Origin: Bacteroidota bacterium
GTDB lineage: Bacteria; Bacteroidota; Rhodothermia; Rhodothermales; UBA10348
Assembly: GCA_022571255.1 (NCBI GenBank)
Contig: JACZYD010000001.1
Coordinates: forward strand, 3,892 to 67,891
DNA length: 64,000 nt
Direction: 5' to 3'
A model generated the notes under the pieces. That model searched no databases and was not told where the DNA came from. It saw nothing but the letters and a program-made list of their open reading frames with translations. The translations under genes and the position numbers were made by a program. Of this stretch, positions 12,216 to 33,799 are shown one piece after another (position 1 is the stretch's first letter; each line of letters starts with the position of its first letter).

Positions 12216-13622
12216 ATGAGCCTGATATCAGATATCCCAGTTCTGGATGATCTCGATGCTCCGCGAGCCTCGACGGTGCGCGCGACAGGAGAGATTCAGG
12301 TTTATCTCGAAACCTACGGGTGCCAGATGAATGTGTCTGACTCTGAGATTGTGGCTTCTATCCTCAAAGAAAACGGGTATGGACTGACGGGGAGGCTTGA
12401 AGACGCCGATGTCATTCTTATAAACACATGTGCCATCCGGGAAAATGCCGAGCAGAAGGTGCGCCGGCGGCTGGCTGAAGTTCGTGCACACAAACGTCAC
12501 AACCGCCCGGATTTAAAAATCGGCGTACTCGGCTGCATGGCCGAACGTCTCCGGGAAAACCTTCTCGAGCAGGAAAAACTTGTGGATCTTGTGGTAGGGC
12601 CGGATGCGTACCGCGACCTTCCGCGTTTGCTGGGCGAAACGGCCGATACCGGACAGGCGGTTGTCAACGTGCAGCTCTCACGCGAAGAAACCTATGACGA
12701 CATTACGCCGATCCGCTACGATTCCAATGGAATTTCTGCGTTTGTTTCGATCATGCGCGGCTGCGACAATATGTGTTCATTCTGTGTGGTTCCATTCACG
12801 CGGGGCCGCGAGAGGAGTCGGTCGATCACGAGCATTCTTGACGAATGTACCTCGCTTGTGGACGAGGGATACCGCGAAGTAACCGTCTTGGGTCAGAACG
12901 TAAATTCGTATCGATTCCGGCAAAACGGTACAGCGGTGGATTTTCCAGAGCTCATACACCGGATCAGCCTGGTCTCCGATGATCTTCGCGTTCGGTATTC
13001 GACCAGCCATCCGAAAGACTGTTCGGACGATCTGTTGAATGTGCACCGCGAACGAGCAAATGTATGCAACTATATTCACCTGCCCGTTCAACACGGCAAT
13101 ACGGATATGCTCAAGCGAATGCGCAGAACGTATTCGCGAGACGAATATCTGGGACTGGTGGAGAGGGCGCGCAAAATCGTCCCGGGGATTGCGCTGTCGA
13201 CCGATATCATCGCCGGATTTTGTGCCGAGACGGAAGAAGAACACCAGGATACGCTTTCTCTGATGCGCGAGGTGAGATACGATCAGGCCTATATGTTCAT
13301 GTATTCCGAGCGCCCGGACACTTACGCGGCTCGAAAATTCAAGGACGATGTACCTGAGGTGGTCAAGAAGCGGCGTCTGAGTGAGATTATTGCCCTTCAG
13401 AGTCAAATCTCACTGCAGAACAACAAAAAGGAAATTGGCCGGGAGCATACGGTGCTGGTAGAAGGACCGAGTCGCCGAAGCAATGATCAACTCTCAGGGC
13501 GTACGGATACGAACAAAATGGTGGTATTTGACCGCCGTGCGCTTAAAAAGGGAGATTACGTGCGAGTCCGGGTTCACGACTGCACATCGGCTACGCTTCG
13601 CGCGGAGGTCGTTGATGGATAG
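12216..13622 (+). CDS. miaB: tRNA-2-methylthio-N6-dimethylallyladenosine synthase MiaB
   Basis: [15 protein letters not shown] (UPF0004 domain), the radical [14 protein letters not shown] motif, and a C-terminal TRAM domain. Confidence 0.9.
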
Positions 13623-15024
13623 AACATCGATGCAGGAGCGTTTTGGAATTATCGGGACATCGCCGGGGATCCGGCACGTGCTGGATCGTGTCCGGCAGGT
13701 AGCACCCACGGATATTACGGTCCTGATCGAGGGCGAAAGTGGTGTTGGCAAAGAATTGGTCGCCAAGGCGGTACACGAACTCAGCTCCCGTCGGCACAAT
13801 CCTATGTTGACGATAAACTGCGCTGCCATTCCGGAGGGTCTGCTTGAGTCAGAACTTTTCGGGAATGAAAAAGGCGCATACACCGGCGCGGTGGAGAGAC
13901 GGCGCGGGTATTTTGAGGAGTCGAACGGGTCCAGCATATTCCTGGACGAAATTGGTGAAATGCCGCTGTCCGCGCAGGTTCGGTTGTTGCGCGTACTCGA
14001 AACAGGAGAATATTCGAGGGTTGGCTCGTCGACGGTCTTGTACAGTGATGTTCGTGTCATTGCCGCCACGAACAGAAATTTAGGCCAGGATGTAGCCTCA
14101 GGTCGTTTTCGGGAAGACCTCTATTACCGGTTGAGCACGGTGATCGTGACCGTACCCCCTCTTCGTGATCGAAAGGAAGACATTCTGCCGATTTTCGAGA
14201 GCTTTCGGCACAAGTTCACGCAGCGCTACAACAGACCGATGCGCACGCTTGACGCCTCAGCGCAGTCGCTGCTTCTGCGGTATCGTTGGCCGGGAAATGC
14301 ACGGGAATTGCGCAACCTGGCCGAACAGACGGCTGTCCTTTTACGGTCTGAGACGATAACGGCGGATGATATCAGGCCGTTTCTGCGTGGCGTTTCGGGG
14401 AGCGGGTCCGAAGCCGGATTGTTGCCGGTGCGAACAACCGGACAGGTGTCGAAAGACCCTGAATCCCGCGAACGCGGATTGATTTATGGCGCACTCCTCG
14501 AACTCAAGAAAGATGTAGCCGAACTCAAAGACAGTGTGGGTCAGCTGATTGCACGGCCTCCGCCGGAGTGGAGCGCTCCGCACAGTGCACAACACACCTC
14601 GCTTCGCCCGTCCCAGCTCGGGCCACATCTGGAATCCGGTTCTGATGAAAGTGCGTCACCGTCCTCGTTTATGCTGGATGATGAAGACTCTTTCATCGAG
14701 GATGTTGCTTACGAGATTGAGCAGGGTAACGGGGAGAATGGCGAGGATCTAAGTGTTGCGGCGGCTGGATCGGCGGCTTCTGGACAGGCTTCTGGATCGG
14801 CGGCTTCTGGACAGGCTGCGAGTGGATCCGGCGCGGGTTTGTCTTCCTCCGAAGTGGAAATCCCGTCCCTGGAAGATTCGGAGAGACGTCTTATCGAAGA
14901 AGCGCTCAAACGATATAACGGAAACCGTCGACAGACTGCGGAAGTCCTCGGGATCAGCGAGCGAACCTTGTACCGCAAGATCAAGGAATATGAAAAGTCG
15001 GATGCCGCCGAAGAAGAATCGTGA
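13615..15024 (+). CDS. Sigma-54-dependent transcriptional activator (bEBP) lacking an N-terminal sensory/receiver domain
   Basis: The AAA+ domain starts almost at the N-terminus ([12 protein letters not shown] Walker A). The GAFTGA-loop variant is [19 protein letters not shown] is present, and the C-terminal Fis-type HTH is [22 protein letters not shown] prefer the ATG at 13615 (8-nt overlap with the miaB stop) to the ORF-track start at 13483. Confidence 0.85.
14766..14819. repeat. 2 x 27-bp in-frame tandem duplication inside the bEBP linker
   Basis: TGGATCGGCGGCTTCTGGACAGGCT is repeated head to tail with a 27-bp period. It encodes GSAASGQAS / GSAASGQAA between the AAA+ domain and the HTH. 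Confidence 0.85.
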
Positions 15025-27918: not shown

Positions 27919-28959
27919 TCAGCCTTGGTCACTTTTCTCAAAAAGATCATTTGCGCGGGGCGGGACGATGCGCCCGAAATGTTTGTACGCGCGCGCCGAT
28001 GCAATACGGCCTCGAGGAGTGCGTTCTATGAATCCTTCCTGAATCAGATAGGGTTCGTAAACTTCTTCGATAGTGTCTGCTTCTTCACCAACCGACACGG
28101 CGAGATTGGTCAGACCCGTCGGGCCGCCGCCAAATTTTTCAATCAGTGTCAGAAGGATTCTTGCGTCCATGTCGTCGAGGCCTTCCTGGTCGACACTCAG
28201 GGCATTCAGCGCATGATCAGCGAGGGGGCGCGTAATGCGTCCGTCACCTTCGACTTCTGCGAAATCTCGTGTGCGTCGAAGCAGTCGGTTCGCAATGCGG
28301 GGGGTTCCACGGCTTCGGCGGGCGATTTCGACCGCACCGTCGTCCGTGATATCTACGCCAAGAATCCCCGCGCTTCGCCGGACAATGTGTGTCAGCAGTT
28401 CACTGGTATAATAATCGTACCTGAAATCTATCCCGAACCGGGCTCGAAGCGGTGAGGTCAGGAGGCCTTTCCGGGTTGTTGCTCCGATCAACGTGAAGGG
28501 AGGGAGAGCGATTTTCACGCTTCGGGCGCTCGGACCCGAATCGATCAGGATATCGATCTGATAGTCCTCCATGGCCGCATACAGATATTCCTCAACCACT
28601 GAGGAGAGGCGATGGATCTCGTCGATGAAAAGCACATCACCTTCGTTGAGGTTCGTAAGGATTCCCGCGATGCTGGCAGGTTTATCGAGCACCGGCCCGG
28701 ACGTGGATTTCATGCTGGCACCCATTTCGCCGGCGATAATATAGGCGAGCGTCGTTTTACCGAGACCGGGAGGACCAGTAAGCAGGACATGATCCAGACA
28801 CTCTCCACGGTGCTGCGCCGCGGTCATGAATATGACCAGGTTATCTTTGATGTTTTGCTGTCCGATGAAGTCTTCGAGCCTCTTCGGGCGAAGGGCACGC
28901 TCGACGTCTGCATCGTCAGAGAGCGGCTCCGGATTGACTTGACCGGGGTGTTCCGGCAT
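27919..28959 (-). CDS. ruvB: Holliday junction branch migration DNA helicase RuvB
   Basis: [12 protein letters not shown]..., Walker [10 protein letters not shown], Walker [10 protein letters not shown] and [13 protein letters not shown]. Confidence 0.95.
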
Positions 28960-29084
28960 GGGATCTGCATAGATTGAAGGAATCGAATAACATACTGATT
29001 TTCGACGACCTTAATCTATGCTGTGAAGCGATTCTGAGTGATATTCGTTTGACAACCAATGGTTTGCACAATAGAATAGGCATC

Positions 29085-29681: not shown

Positions 29682-31160
29682 ATGTTACACCTTTCACAAC
29701 GGCAATCGCTGCAGCAAAAGCTGTCACCGCAACAGATTCAGTACATCAAACTGTTGCAGTTGCCGGCCCTTGCCCTCGAGCAGCGCATCAAGGCTGAAAT
29801 GGAAATCAATCCGATGCTGGAAGAAGGCCTGGATGAACTCGACGAAAAGTTGACGGCGGAGACCGCGGACGACACCCGGGAAGAGACGAAAGAGGGTGAA
29901 GAGAAGGATTCGAAAGAAGAAGAATACAATTGGAGCGAGCTGCTGGATAACGGCGACGATTTATATGGATACAAGGCTCGTGTGGATCGCAGCGCCGAGG
30001 AAGATCGCCAGGAATATGTACAGCCGGCATTGGACTCTGTGCTTGAGTCCATCCGCAAACAACTTGCCTTTCTGGAGCTGACTGACAACGAGGAACTGGT
30101 CGCGGATCAGATTATTGGCTCGATCGATGACGACGGTTATTTGCGTCGACCGCTGGAGTCCATAATCGACGACTTGGCCTTTAATCACGGTGTGTTGCTG
30201 AGCGAATCAGACATCGAAAGTGTGTTATACCGTGTTCAACGGCTTGATCCCGTGGGCGTGGCATCGCGTGATCTGCAGGAATGTCTGCTCGTACAGCTCG
30301 ATATGCTTTCTGCGGAAACCGCTGGGCGCGATACGGCAGTCGAAATGCTCCACCGCGCTTACAAGGAGTTCACGATGAAGCATTATGAGGCAATCATGCG
30401 TCGGCTGCACATCGACGGGGAGCAGCTGAAGGAGGTGTATGAACTCATTCAGCGCCTCGATCCGAAGCCGGGAGAGGGGGCATTTTCGGCATCATCGAAT
30501 TACGTCACGCCGGATTTTACGGTGCGGAATGACGACGATGGCTTCATCATCTATCTGAATAGCGCCAATGCACCCGAGCTTCGTGTATCGAAATCGTACC
30601 GGGAGATGCTCGAGAAAATCGTGGCGGAGAAAGACAAGGCAAAATCATCGTATGAGGCGGAAACCAAACAATTCCTGAAGTCCAAGTTTGAATCTGCCAG
30701 GTGGTTCATCCATTCCATTCAGCAGCGCCAGCAGACCATGACGCTCGTAATGCACGAAATCGTTCATCAGCAGGAAGACTTTTTCAAACTGGGAGAAGGA
30801 CACCTGAAGCCGATGATCCTCAAGGATATTGCAGAAGTGATCCGTATGGACATCTCGACGATCAGTCGAGTGGTTAACGGTAAATACGTACAGACGGATT
30901 TTGGGGTCTACGAGTTGAAGTATTTCTTCTCGGAAGGTCTCGCGACCGACGATGGTACGGAAGTGTCCAATAAAGAAGTCAAAGCCATCATCTATGGAAT
31001 CATCGTCGAAGAGGACAAGAAGAAGCCACTTTCCGATCAGAAAATTGCTACCATACTGTCGGACAGAGGATTTCATATCGCCCGGCGCACCGTGACAAAA
31101 TATCGCGAGCAAATGGGAACGCCGGTAGCGCGTCTGCGCAAGGAAATCGTCGTTTCCTGA
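29682..31160 (+). CDS. rpoN: RNA polymerase sigma-54 factor
   Basis: N-terminal glutamine/leucine-rich region I (LSQRQSLQQKLSPQQIQYIKLLQL), an acidic region II, the C-terminal HTH, and the RpoN box ARRTVTKYRE. Confidence 0.9.
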   Translation: MLHLSQRQSLQQKLSPQQIQYIKLLQLPALALEQRIKAEMEINPMLEEGLDELDEKLTAETADDTREETKEGEEKDSKEEEYNWSELLDNGDDLYGYKARVDRSAEEDRQEYVQPALDSVLESIRKQLAFLELTDNEELVADQIIGSIDDDGYLRRPLESIIDDLAFNHGVLLSESDIESVLYRVQRLDPVGVASRDLQECLLVQLDMLSAETAGRDTAVEMLHRAYKEFTMKHYEAIMRRLHIDGEQLKEVYELIQRLDPKPGEGAFSASSNYVTPDFTVRNDDDGFIIYLNSANAPELRVSKSYREMLEKIVAEKDKAKSSYEAETKQFLKSKFESARWFIHSIQQRQQTMTLVMHEIVHQQEDFFKLGEGHLKPMILKDIAEVIRMDISTISRVVNGKYVQTDFGVYELKYFFSEGLATDDGTEVSNKEVKAIIYGIIVEEDKKKPLSDQKIATILSDRGFHIARRTVTKYREQMGTPVARLRKEIVVS

Positions 31161-31528
31161 CACAAAAGCGCCCCATTGCTGTGAGACCGATGGCTCTGTA
31201 CACGTGCGGTCGACCTGAGTGTCCTCTGCAAAGTGCGCTTTTTTCCTTTTGCAGAAACGGGCAAGGAAGAATGATCGGTACTCAGGGGAAAAAATTCCCC
31301 CCGGCACTGAACAGACCCTGAGGACCGTTTTTCAGAAAACGGCAGAACAGGGAGAGAACCTTTTTTATTTACTTGATCCTTTTAAAAAACAATAGCTTAC
31401 GTGAGTAATGGTGTATGCCGTTATCGCTGTTTTCGTGCCTGTGGACGCTAAATATTCATTTTTATCAATCGCGTAATCAGAGGTTATGAGATGCAGTTCT
31501 GATGGGTCAAAGAAAAAAGGCCTGGTAT

Positions 31529-31555
31529 TTGCAACTGCCCTGACTCAGGTTGCAA
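31529..31555. promoter_or_regulatory. 7-bp perfect inverted repeat (TTGCAAC N13 GTTGCAA) upstream of a small ORF
   Basis: Read directly: TTGCAAC at 31529-31535 and GTTGCAA at 31549-31555, 45-70 nt upstream of the ATG at 31600. It could be an operator or an RNA hairpin. Confidence 0.3.
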
Positions 31556-31599
31556 CCAGTACGATCAAACCACTTTAACCTGGAAGGGTCCAGATCAAC

Positions 31600-31860
31600 A
31601 TGCAGACAATTTCATTAGTCCCGCGTCAAACCGCATTCTCCGTACTTTTTTCCCGTTATATCAACGGTGATATTACCGAGCGCGTCTGGAAAAGAATGAT
31701 GCGGACTTTCGACCACGAAGGAATAACAGCAACCGAACGCATGGCCTTCGCACGTTTTATGACCGAAGTCATTGATGACGAAAAAGATGGTCGTTTGAAC
31801 GTGCCTGCTCCGGAAGAAATGTCAGAGATATTGACGGACATGCGTAGCACAAGACATTGA
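31600..31860 (+). CDS. Hypothetical small protein (86 aa)
   Basis: This is the only plausible ORF in the 1.6 kb island. The composition is helical and charged (ERVWKRMMRTFDHEGITATERMAFARFMTEVIDDEKDG). No family recognised. Confidence 0.35.
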   Translation: MQTISLVPRQTAFSVLFSRYINGDITERVWKRMMRTFDHEGITATERMAFARFMTEVIDDEKDGRLNVPAPEEMSEILTDMRSTRH

Positions 31861-32145
31861 ACTCGCAGCCCTGAATCCGAGACTCTGAACAATCGAATTT
31901 CAATAATCGAATCTGTACGTCTGAAGATGTAAAGCTACCTCCCATAAGCTTCTGTGACCCGAATTCGGTGGGGGTTCCGGTCACGATCTTCGACCTGGCG
32001 CTGGATGTGGTACCACACGTCCAGCGTTCTTTTTTGTTTGCTTCCCATCAATCATTCCTTGAGAGCATTCCTGTCTGAACAGTGACGCTGAAACCCGATC
32101 ATCATACATTGTACGCAATGCATCGGTCATACATTCGCGATCGCA

Positions 32146-32170
32146 GGGTGTGCAGCGACGCTTCACACCC
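32146..32170. promoter_or_regulatory. 25-bp near-perfect dyad (possible activator/UAS site)
   Basis: GGGTGTGCAGCGACGCTTCACACCC: 11 of 12 arm positions are self-complementary around a central A. Its centre lies about 78 bp upstream of the GG of the sigma-54-type -24 element. Confidence 0.35.
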
Positions 32171-32233
32171 TTGAAATATGGAAGACAGACGGCTTCGAAA
32201 CTGTGGTTCCTGAGGTTTCAGAGCACCGCAAGA

Positions 32234-32249
32234 TGGCACATGGTATGCT
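32234..32249 (+). promoter_or_regulatory. Candidate sigma-54 (-24/-12) promoter
   Basis: TGGCACatggtATGCTt. The GG (32235-32236) and GC (32247-32248) have the canonical spacing of TGGCAC-N5-TTGC. The only mismatch is A for T at -15. It lies in non-coding DNA downstream of rpoN. Confidence 0.45.
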
Positions 32250-32767
32250 TTTGGCGACTGTGTCTGCATATACATAGCTTCTGGACTCATCCAGCTGCCA
32301 TTTCATCCTGAAAATTCTCTTTAAAAGGGGTTCCCGGACCCGTAAAACCGGTAATCCGGTTTCTGTTATCGATAAATAGCCGGGGCGAAACAGAATATTC
32401 GCATACTCTCTTAGAAGGAAGAGAAAAGGGCAATAGGGTGTGAAGTGTGGTTGCACAGGCTCGGCGGGAGTAGAAGCCCCTTTTTCGACCCCATAGACAT
32501 ATTGGTGCGCAAGTACTTAGATATACTTTGTCCATGCAGCCGGAAATATTTTCATTTTTTTGATTATTTCGTTGTAAAACGGAAGCGGTAAACCCGTCAC
32601 CCAAAAAATTGTCGTCCTGCACTGACCAGCAGTACATTCTGTTTTTTATTACACGATTGAACAATGGACGGAGATATTCGAGCTCGAAACTTATTGCACT
32701 TCAGCAAGGAGAAGGCCGAGGATCTTGTAAGACAAATCCTGCCAAGAAACTGATAAATCCAGTACTG

Positions 32768-33799
32768 ATGTCATCTGAGTCATTACCTGAGTCTGTCGAG
32801 ATCTGCGAAGTCGGTCCGCGAGACGGTTTTCAGTTCGAATCGGAACCGATTCCTACCGAGCTTAAACTCGAGGTTATCCGCGGACTGGTGGCTGCCGGTG
32901 TGTCGCGAATCCAAGTGACCTCGTTTGTGCATCCGGGCAAGGTACCGCAGATGTCCGATGCCGAAGAAGTGGTAGACGCACTTCTGGCGGACGCACGGCC
33001 GATAGATGTACCACCGACGGACGCACTGCCGACGGACGCACTGCCGGCGGAAGCACTTCTGGTGGACAAACTGCCGGCGAAAGCACTTCTGGTGGACAAA
33101 CTGCCGGCGAAAGCTGATCTGGCAGCTTCGACAATTTTCACGGGGTTGTGCTTGAATATGCGCGGCATTCAGCGTGCGGCTGATTCCGGCCTTCGCTGCG
33201 TCGACATCTCGATTGCGACCAACGAACGGCACGGCGAAGACAATGCAGGTATGACGATAGAGGCGGGCGTTGAGCAGGCCGAAAAAATGATCAGCGAAGC
33301 CACTCGATTGGGGCTGCGGACGCAGCTGGGACTTCAAACAGTATTTGGTTATAAAAATCCTGGAGATACACCGCTGGATCTGGTGATCGCACTCTGTAAA
33401 CGATTCGCCGAGATGCCGATCGAATCACTCTCCCTGGCCGACTCAACCGGTCTCGCGAACCCTGAAATGATGAAAGAGAGACTGGGAGCGATACGGGGGG
33501 TTACAGGTGATGTACCGATTGTTCTTCATCTGCATGATACTCGAGGGTTGGGTCTCGTGAACCTGATGGCAGCTCTTGAAACGGGAGTAAACCGATTTGA
33601 TACGTCGTTGGGCGGGCTCGGCGGATGCCCGTTCATCCCGGGCGCAACCGGCAATATTGCAACCGAGGAGGTGGTATATCTCTGCGATGGGCTGGGTATC
33701 GAGACAGGAATTGACGTGGCTGCCGTGGCCCGTCAGAGTCGCCGAATGGCTGAGTTTCTGGGACGGTCGTTGTCGGGAAAACTGTACAGATTATTGTAA
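32768..33799 (+). CDS. Hydroxymethylglutaryl-CoA lyase-like (HMGL family) protein
   Basis: EICEVGPRDGFQFE...QVTSFVHPGKVPQM..., HLHDTRGLGLVN and GGLGGCPF motifs of the HMGL/DRE-TIM family. I prefer the ATG at 32768 to the ORF-track start at 32609. Confidence 0.85.
   Translation: MSSESLPESVEICEVGPRDGFQFESEPIPTELKLEVIRGLVAAGVSRIQVTSFVHPGKVPQMSDAEEVVDALLADARPIDVPPTDALPTDALPAEALLVDKLPAKALLVDKLPAKADLAASTIFTGLCLNMRGIQRAADSGLRCVDISIATNERHGEDNAGMTIEAGVEQAEKMISEATRLGLRTQLGLQTVFGYKNPGDTPLDLVIALCKRFAEMPIESLSLADSTGLANPEMMKERLGAIRGVTGDVPIVLHLHDTRGLGLVNLMAALETGVNRFDTSLGGLGGCPFIPGATGNIATEEVVYLCDGLGIETGIDVAAVARQSRRMAEFLGRSLSGKLYRLL
33014..33121. repeat. In-frame tandem repeats (2 x 15 bp, then 2.6 x 30 bp) inside the HMGL-like gene
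   Basis: CCGACGGACGCACTG occurs twice (33014-33043). CCGGCGRAAGCACTTCTGGTGGACAAACTG occurs twice (33044-33103), followed by a partial third copy. Together they encode PTDAL PTDAL PAEALLVDKL PAKALLVDKL PAKADL. Confidence 0.9.

Follow-up and report, generated by a model that had tools for sequence, protein, structure and literature searches.

A high-quality predicted sigma-54 recognition sequence in a lineage-specific spacer between rpoN and an HMG-CoA lyase-family gene

We analyzed a stretch of 64,000 nucleotides of bacterial DNA, called the window below, which carries rpoN, the gene for sigma-54. On the same strand, rpoN is followed by a gene for an 86-amino-acid protein (p86), a structured RNA that ends in a terminator, a long non-coding block, and a gene of the hydroxymethylglutaryl-CoA lyase family (the HMGL-like or lyase gene). 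Beyond the HMGL-like gene lies gcvP, on the opposite strand and convergent with it. Among named organisms, the lyase has its closest relatives in the Rhodothermales. A sequence resembling a sigma-54 promoter had been flagged in the block; it is in non-coding DNA and oriented toward the next gene. The features of the locus are as follows, in coordinates of the window.

13483-15024, plus strand: enhancer-binding protein gene, the only one in the window (Sigma54_activat and HTH_8 domains)
29682-31160, plus strand: rpoN, sigma-54 (Pfam Sigma54_AID, Sigma54_CBD, and Sigma54_DBD)
31518-31533, plus strand: putative conserved sigma-54-type promoter AGGCCTGGTATTTGCA, 67 nt upstream of the 86-aa gene and common to relatives
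31600-31860, plus strand: conserved 86-aa gene (p86), downstream of rpoN, without a family match
31917-32040, plus strand: conserved structured RNA of ~124 nt, directly after the 86-aa gene, without an Rfam family
31997-32038, plus strand: strong intrinsic terminator (13-bp stem and T-run) closing the upstream unit
32040-32767, no strand assigned: lineage-specific non-coding block of 728 nt, from the upstream terminator to the HMGL start, containing dyad A, the flagged motif, and site B
32145-32171, no strand assigned: dyad A, AGGGTGTGCAGCG-A-CGCTTCACACCCT, with 12 of 13 arm positions paired; centre at 32158, ~-102 from the predicted start
32234-32249, plus strand: flagged sigma-54-type -24/-12 element TGGCACATGGTATGCT, read directly; predicted start at ~32260
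32435-32461, no strand assigned: site B, an inverted degenerate copy of dyad A (22 of 27 positions matched), at ~+188 from the predicted start
32768-33799, plus strand: HMGL-like gene (Pfam PF00682; homologues are named HMG-CoA lyase)

The original prediction described the flagged site as lying next to rpoN, which is loose, as the 86-aa gene and the strong terminator stand between the two. The terminator stem has a predicted energy of -22.9 kcal/mol (z = -4.9) and is conserved with compensatory changes, and the gap from terminator to lyase is 729 nt. The only gene that the flagged site could drive is the HMGL-like gene, whose ATG at 32768 is 520 nt downstream of the site. As had been noted, no plus-strand open reading frame of at least 60 amino acids precedes it, save for the HMGL frame itself, which can be extended in frame to a TTG at 32609, a start which the homologues do not use. 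Within the HMGL-like gene, an in-frame tandem repeat at 33000-33120 (plus strand) encodes PTDALPTDALPAEALLVDKLPAKALLVDKLPAK and makes the lyase 30 to 40 amino acids longer than its homologues; one 30-nt repeat unit (33051-33080) is missing from the lyase gene of another strain of the species, L037. The host has sigma-54 and at least one enhancer-binding protein gene. The one in the window, at 13483-15024, sits between miaB-like and lptE-like genes; its GAFTGA loop reads GAYTGA, and it is without an N-terminal sensor domain.

The flagged element consists of TGGCAC at 32234-32239, the spacer ATGGT at 32240-32244, ATGC at 32245-32248, and T at 32249. Nine of the ten core positions agree with the consensus TGGCAC-N5-TTGC, and GG and GC are 10 nt apart; the claim of an exact -24/-12 spacing with a single mismatch was right to the base, in coordinates and in letters. 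Counted by consensus, such sites are not enriched in the window, with 5 found versus 3.7 expected at one mismatch or fewer and 46 versus 54 expected at two or fewer. Ranking the site with a sigma-54 weight matrix had been proposed along with the original prediction, and when this was done on the 64-kb window, the site came first with both matrices used, at ~0.3 expected matches. The first matrix was a rough one based on frequencies of our own, with which ~128,000 positions on both strands were scored; the flagged site reached 14.9 bits, with 0.33 such matches expected per 64 kb. The second was built from 29 ChIP-supported intergenic Salmonella sigma-54 sites (PMC3844500, Table 3). On this matrix the site scored 16.2 bits, 5 bits ahead of the next match and inside the range of the training sites (16.1 to 23.1 bits), with 0.30 expected per 64 kb. 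The chance expectation of such a match is ~0.002 for one strand of the 728-nt block and ~20 for a 4-Mb genome. Because only ~9% of the window is non-coding, chance alone would place a match of this quality outside coding sequence in ~3% of such windows. The validated hycA, zraP, and fdhF promoters (PMC3844500) likewise have ATGC as their -12 element. Judged by these scores, the 16-mer is a high-quality predicted sigma-54 recognition sequence.

Upstream of the element, a 25-bp palindrome with 11 of 12 matching arm positions had been reported. This core (GGGTGTGCAGCG-A-CGCTTCACACCC, 32146-32170) was found exactly as described, and it can be extended to 12 of 13 paired positions over 32145-32171 (dyad A). 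Its centre at ~-102 falls within the ~80 to 150 bp upstream that is typical of activator sites, so the distance and symmetry that had been put forward for such a site hold as well. As a hairpin, dyad A folds at z = -4.3. The half-site AGGGTGTGMAG occurs in three exact copies in the 64 kb, all inside 317 nt and two of them in dyad A; with one-mismatch matches counted, there are 6 copies versus 1.2 expected, and none of 100 shuffles reached 6. Dyad A is non-random. Site B, which was not part of the original prediction, is composed of one perfect and one weak half-site, and in 300 simulations a match as good as the one between it and dyad A (22/27) arose once. At their centres A and B are unlike, with ~3 of 5 positions identical. 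Upstream of the flagged motif there is thus one dyad only, the second copy being downstream. It had also been proposed to look for the dyad at other sigma-54 promoters; in the 64-kb window there was none near other sigma-54-like sites, and the exact half-sites are confined to this spacer. No gene for an activator (enhancer-binding protein), transcription factor, recombinase, or transposase was found within ~12 kb on either side. Just 5' of dyad A, at 32102-32135 (plus strand), there is a perfect 9-nt direct repeat, TCATACATT, in two copies 25 nt apart.

Downstream of the element, the putative leader of ~507 to 510 nt folds no better than shuffled sequence (z = -0.7), which does not bear out the long structured leader that had been envisaged. 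A scan of the plus strand of the block found no sigma-70-like promoter; its consensus is that of Escherichia coli and may miss the housekeeping promoters of this phylum, which weakens any argument that the sigma-54 site is the only promoter candidate. With this E. coli-type scan and a search for the Bacteroidota-type TAnnTTTG motif, no informative candidate for a housekeeping promoter of the lyase gene was obtained, and alignment of the lyase upstream regions of the relatives revealed no common motif.

We investigated the distribution of the block in related bacteria, which were found via a protein index of lyase homologues; scans of genome and metagenome contigs gave only ~50 to 54% identical ones. 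Strain L037 of the same species has the same spacer, with a lyase identity of 97% and a nucleotide identity of 99.6% over 12 kb. A second strain of the species, L039 (lyase identity of 99%), matches the right-hand 371 nt of the spacer, and the contig of a third, L045, ends at 32058, just within the block. Five related Rhodothermales-like lineages (L038, L040, L041/L042, L043/L044, and L046) retain the order 86-aa gene, lyase, gcvP; lyase identity to the window is 73% for L038, 65% for L040, 65% for L041/L042, and 66% for L043/L044. In the five lineages the spacer from terminator to lyase is 80 to 216 nt, versus 729 nt in the window. The entire block 32040-32767 is missing from L038, L040, L041, L043, and L046, and no sigma-54-like site of at least 7 bits was found upstream of their lyase genes. 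Conservation in syntenic regions, by which the original prediction was to be judged, is therefore not seen: motif, dyad, and the whole block are lacking in five related lineages with the same gene order.

Derivation of the block from the ancestral spacer was considered and rejected. Local alignments of the block to the relatives' spacers were no better than those of shuffled sequences (p = 0.24 to 0.96), while the positive control, L038 versus L043, gave p = 0; the scattered MAFFT matches between the block and these spacers are therefore ascribed to chance. By these comparisons, the block has replaced a short ancestral spacer in this species-level lineage only, and the flagged site is young.

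Compared with L037, the block has 5 substitutions in 728 nt (0.69%), and there are 11 changes in ~2,480 synonymous sites (~0.44%). All 6 intergenic substitutions in the 12-kb comparison are in the spacer 31861-32767, five of them in the block, and none is in the ~950 nt of other intergenic DNA; rpoN has none either. Since the substitution rate of the block is at least equal to the synonymous rate, most of the block is unconstrained. Dyad A, the motif, and site B are untouched by any of the five changes, which with so few changes is expected by chance (probability ~0.6, our own estimate).

Other identities of the block were examined as well. A hidden gene or pseudogene was rejected, as the open reading frames of the block are noise-like and without Pfam matches and six of them, concatenated, had no homologue in 5.8 billion proteins. 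Rfam scans at the gathering threshold (whole window) and at permissive settings (31300-33000) gave no family, the best match being a sub-threshold ctRNA_pGA1 that is merely the terminator hairpin, and ARAGORN gave no tRNA or tmRNA. A decayed duplicate of the neighbouring conserved RNA was also rejected, because the covariance model of that RNA finds a single copy, after the 86-aa gene. A multi-copy element was rejected, since blastn (word size 7) returned no second copy from elsewhere in the window or from any fetched locus, and the plasmid and phage collections searched with the block gave no match.

The promoter sequence that the relatives share lies ~700 bases upstream of the flagged site. 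Around it, a 22-nt block, AAAAAGGCCTGGTATTTGCAAC, shows no change among the window, L038, and L040, although the flanks diverge; the 18-nt core of this block is likewise unchanged in L046. In the same place (2515-2530), the more distant L019 has a perfect TGGCACGCAAGTTGCT, scoring 20.1 bits, upstream of its own 86-aa homologue. The counterparts in L047 and L002 are GGGACTGGTATTTGCG and GGGCGCGGTATTTGTA, respectively, the latter with the -12 GC changed to GT. On the Salmonella matrix the version in the window reaches no more than 4.5 bits, and its assignment to sigma-54 therefore rests on the GG-N10-GC core, the invariance, and the canonical L019 version. On these grounds, the predicted promoter at 31518-31533 is of the sigma-54 type and kept by selection beside rpoN.

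The p86 protein is conserved across this order: homologues are found downstream of rpoN in L002, L019, L038, L040, L046, and L047, and truncated copies are found upstream of HMGL in L043 and L044, on contigs that do not reach rpoN. A word-index search gave only six homologues, and no relative was found in Pfam, NCBIfam, or PDB; the protein is predicted to have four helices, in a low-confidence model (pLDDT of 64). The RNA at 31917-32040 comprises an outer helix, a hairpin with an invariant CUACCUCC loop (CCUCC; anti-Shine-Dalgarno-like), a second hairpin, and the terminator, and nine of its pairs show compensatory changes. By its covariance model, each close relative and L002 have a single copy, after p86, and no further copies are detected. 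Promoter, p86, and RNA together look like a sigma-54-driven unit that is physically linked to the sigma-54 gene.

Two further sequences near rpoN were noticed. The spacer between rpoN and the 86-aa gene contains a palindrome, GGGGAAAAAATTCCCC (31284-31301, plus strand), ~235 nt upstream of the conserved promoter, which is conserved in L038 and partly in L040 and could be a hairpin at the 3' end of rpoN or a distal activator site. The second-best matrix match in the window, CGGCATGGGATCTGCA (28954-28971, plus strand), lies upstream of the DUF3109-rpoN genes and was considered as an autoregulatory promoter of rpoN; it was rejected as a conserved promoter because it shares bases with the ruvB start codon and L038 has GT in place of its GC.

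Our tentative reading, to which we give a chance a little below even, is that the flagged site is a young sigma-54 promoter from which the lyase gene is now transcribed. With a terminator upstream and the ancestral spacer undetectable in the block, transcription of the lyase gene has to begin inside the block, where the sigma-54 site would be the only strong promoter candidate found. Sigma-54 RNA polymerase would bind at 32234-32249 and start near 32260, and transcription would read through the unstructured leader of ~507 nt into the lyase gene. Activation would come from an enhancer-binding protein at dyad A (~-102) and perhaps also at site B (~+188). From the sequence we infer sigma-54 binding, a start at this place, binding of an activator to the dyads, and dependence of the lyase gene on this promoter. 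Canonical sigma-54 sites occur in this order, the L019 site being an example, and this was counted in favor, along with the score, location, and orientation of the site and the dyad at ~-102; counted against were the relatives' lyase genes, which have no sigma-54-like site, the mostly unconstrained block, the single upstream dyad, which was seen near no other sigma-54-like site of the window, and the lack of an activator gene within ~12 kb. A leader of ~507 nt is also unusually long for a sigma-54 promoter. A young promoter is nonetheless plausible, fairly ordinary, and of a known kind. In the literature we found no paper joining sigma-54 and Rhodothermus, and a 2025 cross-phylum regulon survey makes no mention of the lyase gene or its pathway.

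The site may instead be a fortuitous, unused match in a neutral insertion or replacement of 728 nt, with the lyase gene transcribed from an unrecognised, nearer housekeeping promoter or by read-through, and the A/B repeat left over from an inverted duplication or from the termini of a dead non-autonomous element. We regard this explanation as distinctly possible, though short of even, and a working young promoter as about as likely as a chance match. It agrees with the number of matches of this quality expected (~0.3 per 64 kb, roughly 20 per 4-Mb genome), with the lack of enrichment in consensus counting, with the 520 nt between site and gene, and with the fact that the block is missing in every relative lineage and has no sign of purifying selection. 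Site B repeats the half-site variant arrangement of the reverse complement of A, which points to duplication by descent rather than to independent binding sites, and the conserved sigma-54-type promoter of this genome is elsewhere, at 31518-31533. Chance accounts less well for a match that is 5 bits above all others in the window and falls within the 9% that is non-coding, for its occurrence together with a real dyad at the distance canonical for activators, and for the need for some promoter in the block, where no other was found.

The dyads also raise the question of a cassette. The inverted-repeat arms, 27 nt each with 22 of 27 positions matched, bound a segment of 317 bp (32145-32461), which could be a MITE-like promoter carrier or an invertible promoter switch flipped by a recombinase. 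Its size and geometry fit MITEs and invertible promoters, the repeats are significant (1 in 300 simulations), each repeat is itself a dyad, like recombinase sites, a promoter-like site is inside, and the block is an insertion relative to the relatives. We nevertheless consider it unlikely. There is no second copy in the 64-kb window or the fetched loci, and neither 5.8 billion predicted proteins, searched for spurious open reading frames of such copies, nor the plasmid and phage collections yielded a look-alike. No target-site duplication is evident at the borders, and the segment accounts for only 317 of the 728 extra bases. The differing central regions of A and B would be poor substrates for strand exchange, and no recombinase or transposase gene is within ~12 kb. 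Only one orientation is seen, L037 having the same one as the window throughout and L039, which covers the right repeat only, being collinear there. The full form of this idea, in which a portable or invertible sigma-54 promoter-plus-enhancer cassette, mobile or phase variable, has placed the lyase under sigma-54 in one Rhodothermales lineage, is more improbable still.

An independent sigma-54-dependent small RNA had been proposed as the other possible product, and it would run for ~105 nt, from 32260 to a weak hairpin at 32345-32362. The quality of the promoter sequence agrees with such an RNA, as does the 7-bp hairpin (AAACCGG-UAAU-CCGGUUU) followed by CUGUUAUCG, and the kind is known, as the validated Salmonella sites include those of glmY and glmZ (PMC3844500). 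This hairpin is the sole terminator-like candidate, however; its region folds at z = -0.8 versus shuffles and its tail is U-poor, and a scan of the plus strand from 32040 to 32900 revealed no convincing terminator between the predicted start and the lyase ATG. Since there is also no Rfam match and conservation is limited to near-identical strains, we give the small RNA only a slight chance. Least probable of all is that the repeats act in RNA transcribed from further upstream, as a 27-bp helix closing a structure of ~317 nt in which the sigma-54-like site would be mere internal sequence: the segment 32140-32465 does fold at z = -3.9 on the plus strand, slightly better than on the minus strand (z = -2.9), with 24 of 27 pairs, including two G-U, between A and B, but the repeat itself accounts for nearly all of this signal, the promoter scan gave nothing from the terminator to 32145, and the segment has no Rfam family, no conservation, and a neutral substitution rate.

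If the young promoter works, the locus would be a case of promoter turnover, in which a catabolic gene of the leucine and ketone-body pathway was brought under sigma-54 in one species. Spacer replacement would be the route, which would inform how sigma-54 regulons change without amounting to a new kind of system. If the match is fortuitous, the locus shows that neither first rank among intergenic matrix matches nor a well-placed palindrome guarantees that a site will pass a test of synteny. The putative unit of promoter, p86, and RNA beside rpoN is the more durable and more interesting by-product.

Among known systems, the Salmonella hycA (TGGCATGGAAAATGC), zraP (TGGCACGGAAGATGC), and fdhF (TGGCATAAAACATGC) promoters have the same TGGCA(C/T)-N5-ATGC core as the flagged site (PMC3844500). 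Those promoters stand a short distance from their genes and are shared by relatives, typically with an activator gene or several upstream sites, whereas the flagged site is 520 nt from its gene and lineage-specific, with one upstream dyad and one downstream copy. Activator sites are usually ~100 bp upstream of sigma-54 promoters, and so is dyad A. The small RNAs GlmY and GlmZ, with the activator GlrR, and the Vibrio Qrr RNAs, with the activator LuxO, likewise have a sigma-54 promoter and upstream activator sites before a non-coding transcript; they have clear terminators, conserved structures, and Rfam families, none of which was found at the flagged locus.

MITEs, Correia-type elements, and the invertible promoters of Bacteroidota are intergenic, measure 100 to 600 bp, have inverted repeats of 20 to 30 bp, and can carry promoters. 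Unlike MITEs and invertible promoters, the 317-bp segment is single-copy in the DNA searched, has imperfect repeats with unlike cores, is observed in one orientation, and is without a target duplication or a nearby recombinase gene.

HMG-CoA lyase itself is not known to be under sigma-54 control. Two systems of Bacillus subtilis, which belongs to another phylum, offer parallels to the flagged locus in arrangement and pathway. At rocG, the sigma-54 activator RocR acts from a downstream activating sequence, an arrangement that would accommodate site B. The bkd operon, for branched-chain amino-acid catabolism, depends on sigma-L and BkdR, and this control of bkd by sigma-54 makes a lyase of the leucine pathway a plausible target.
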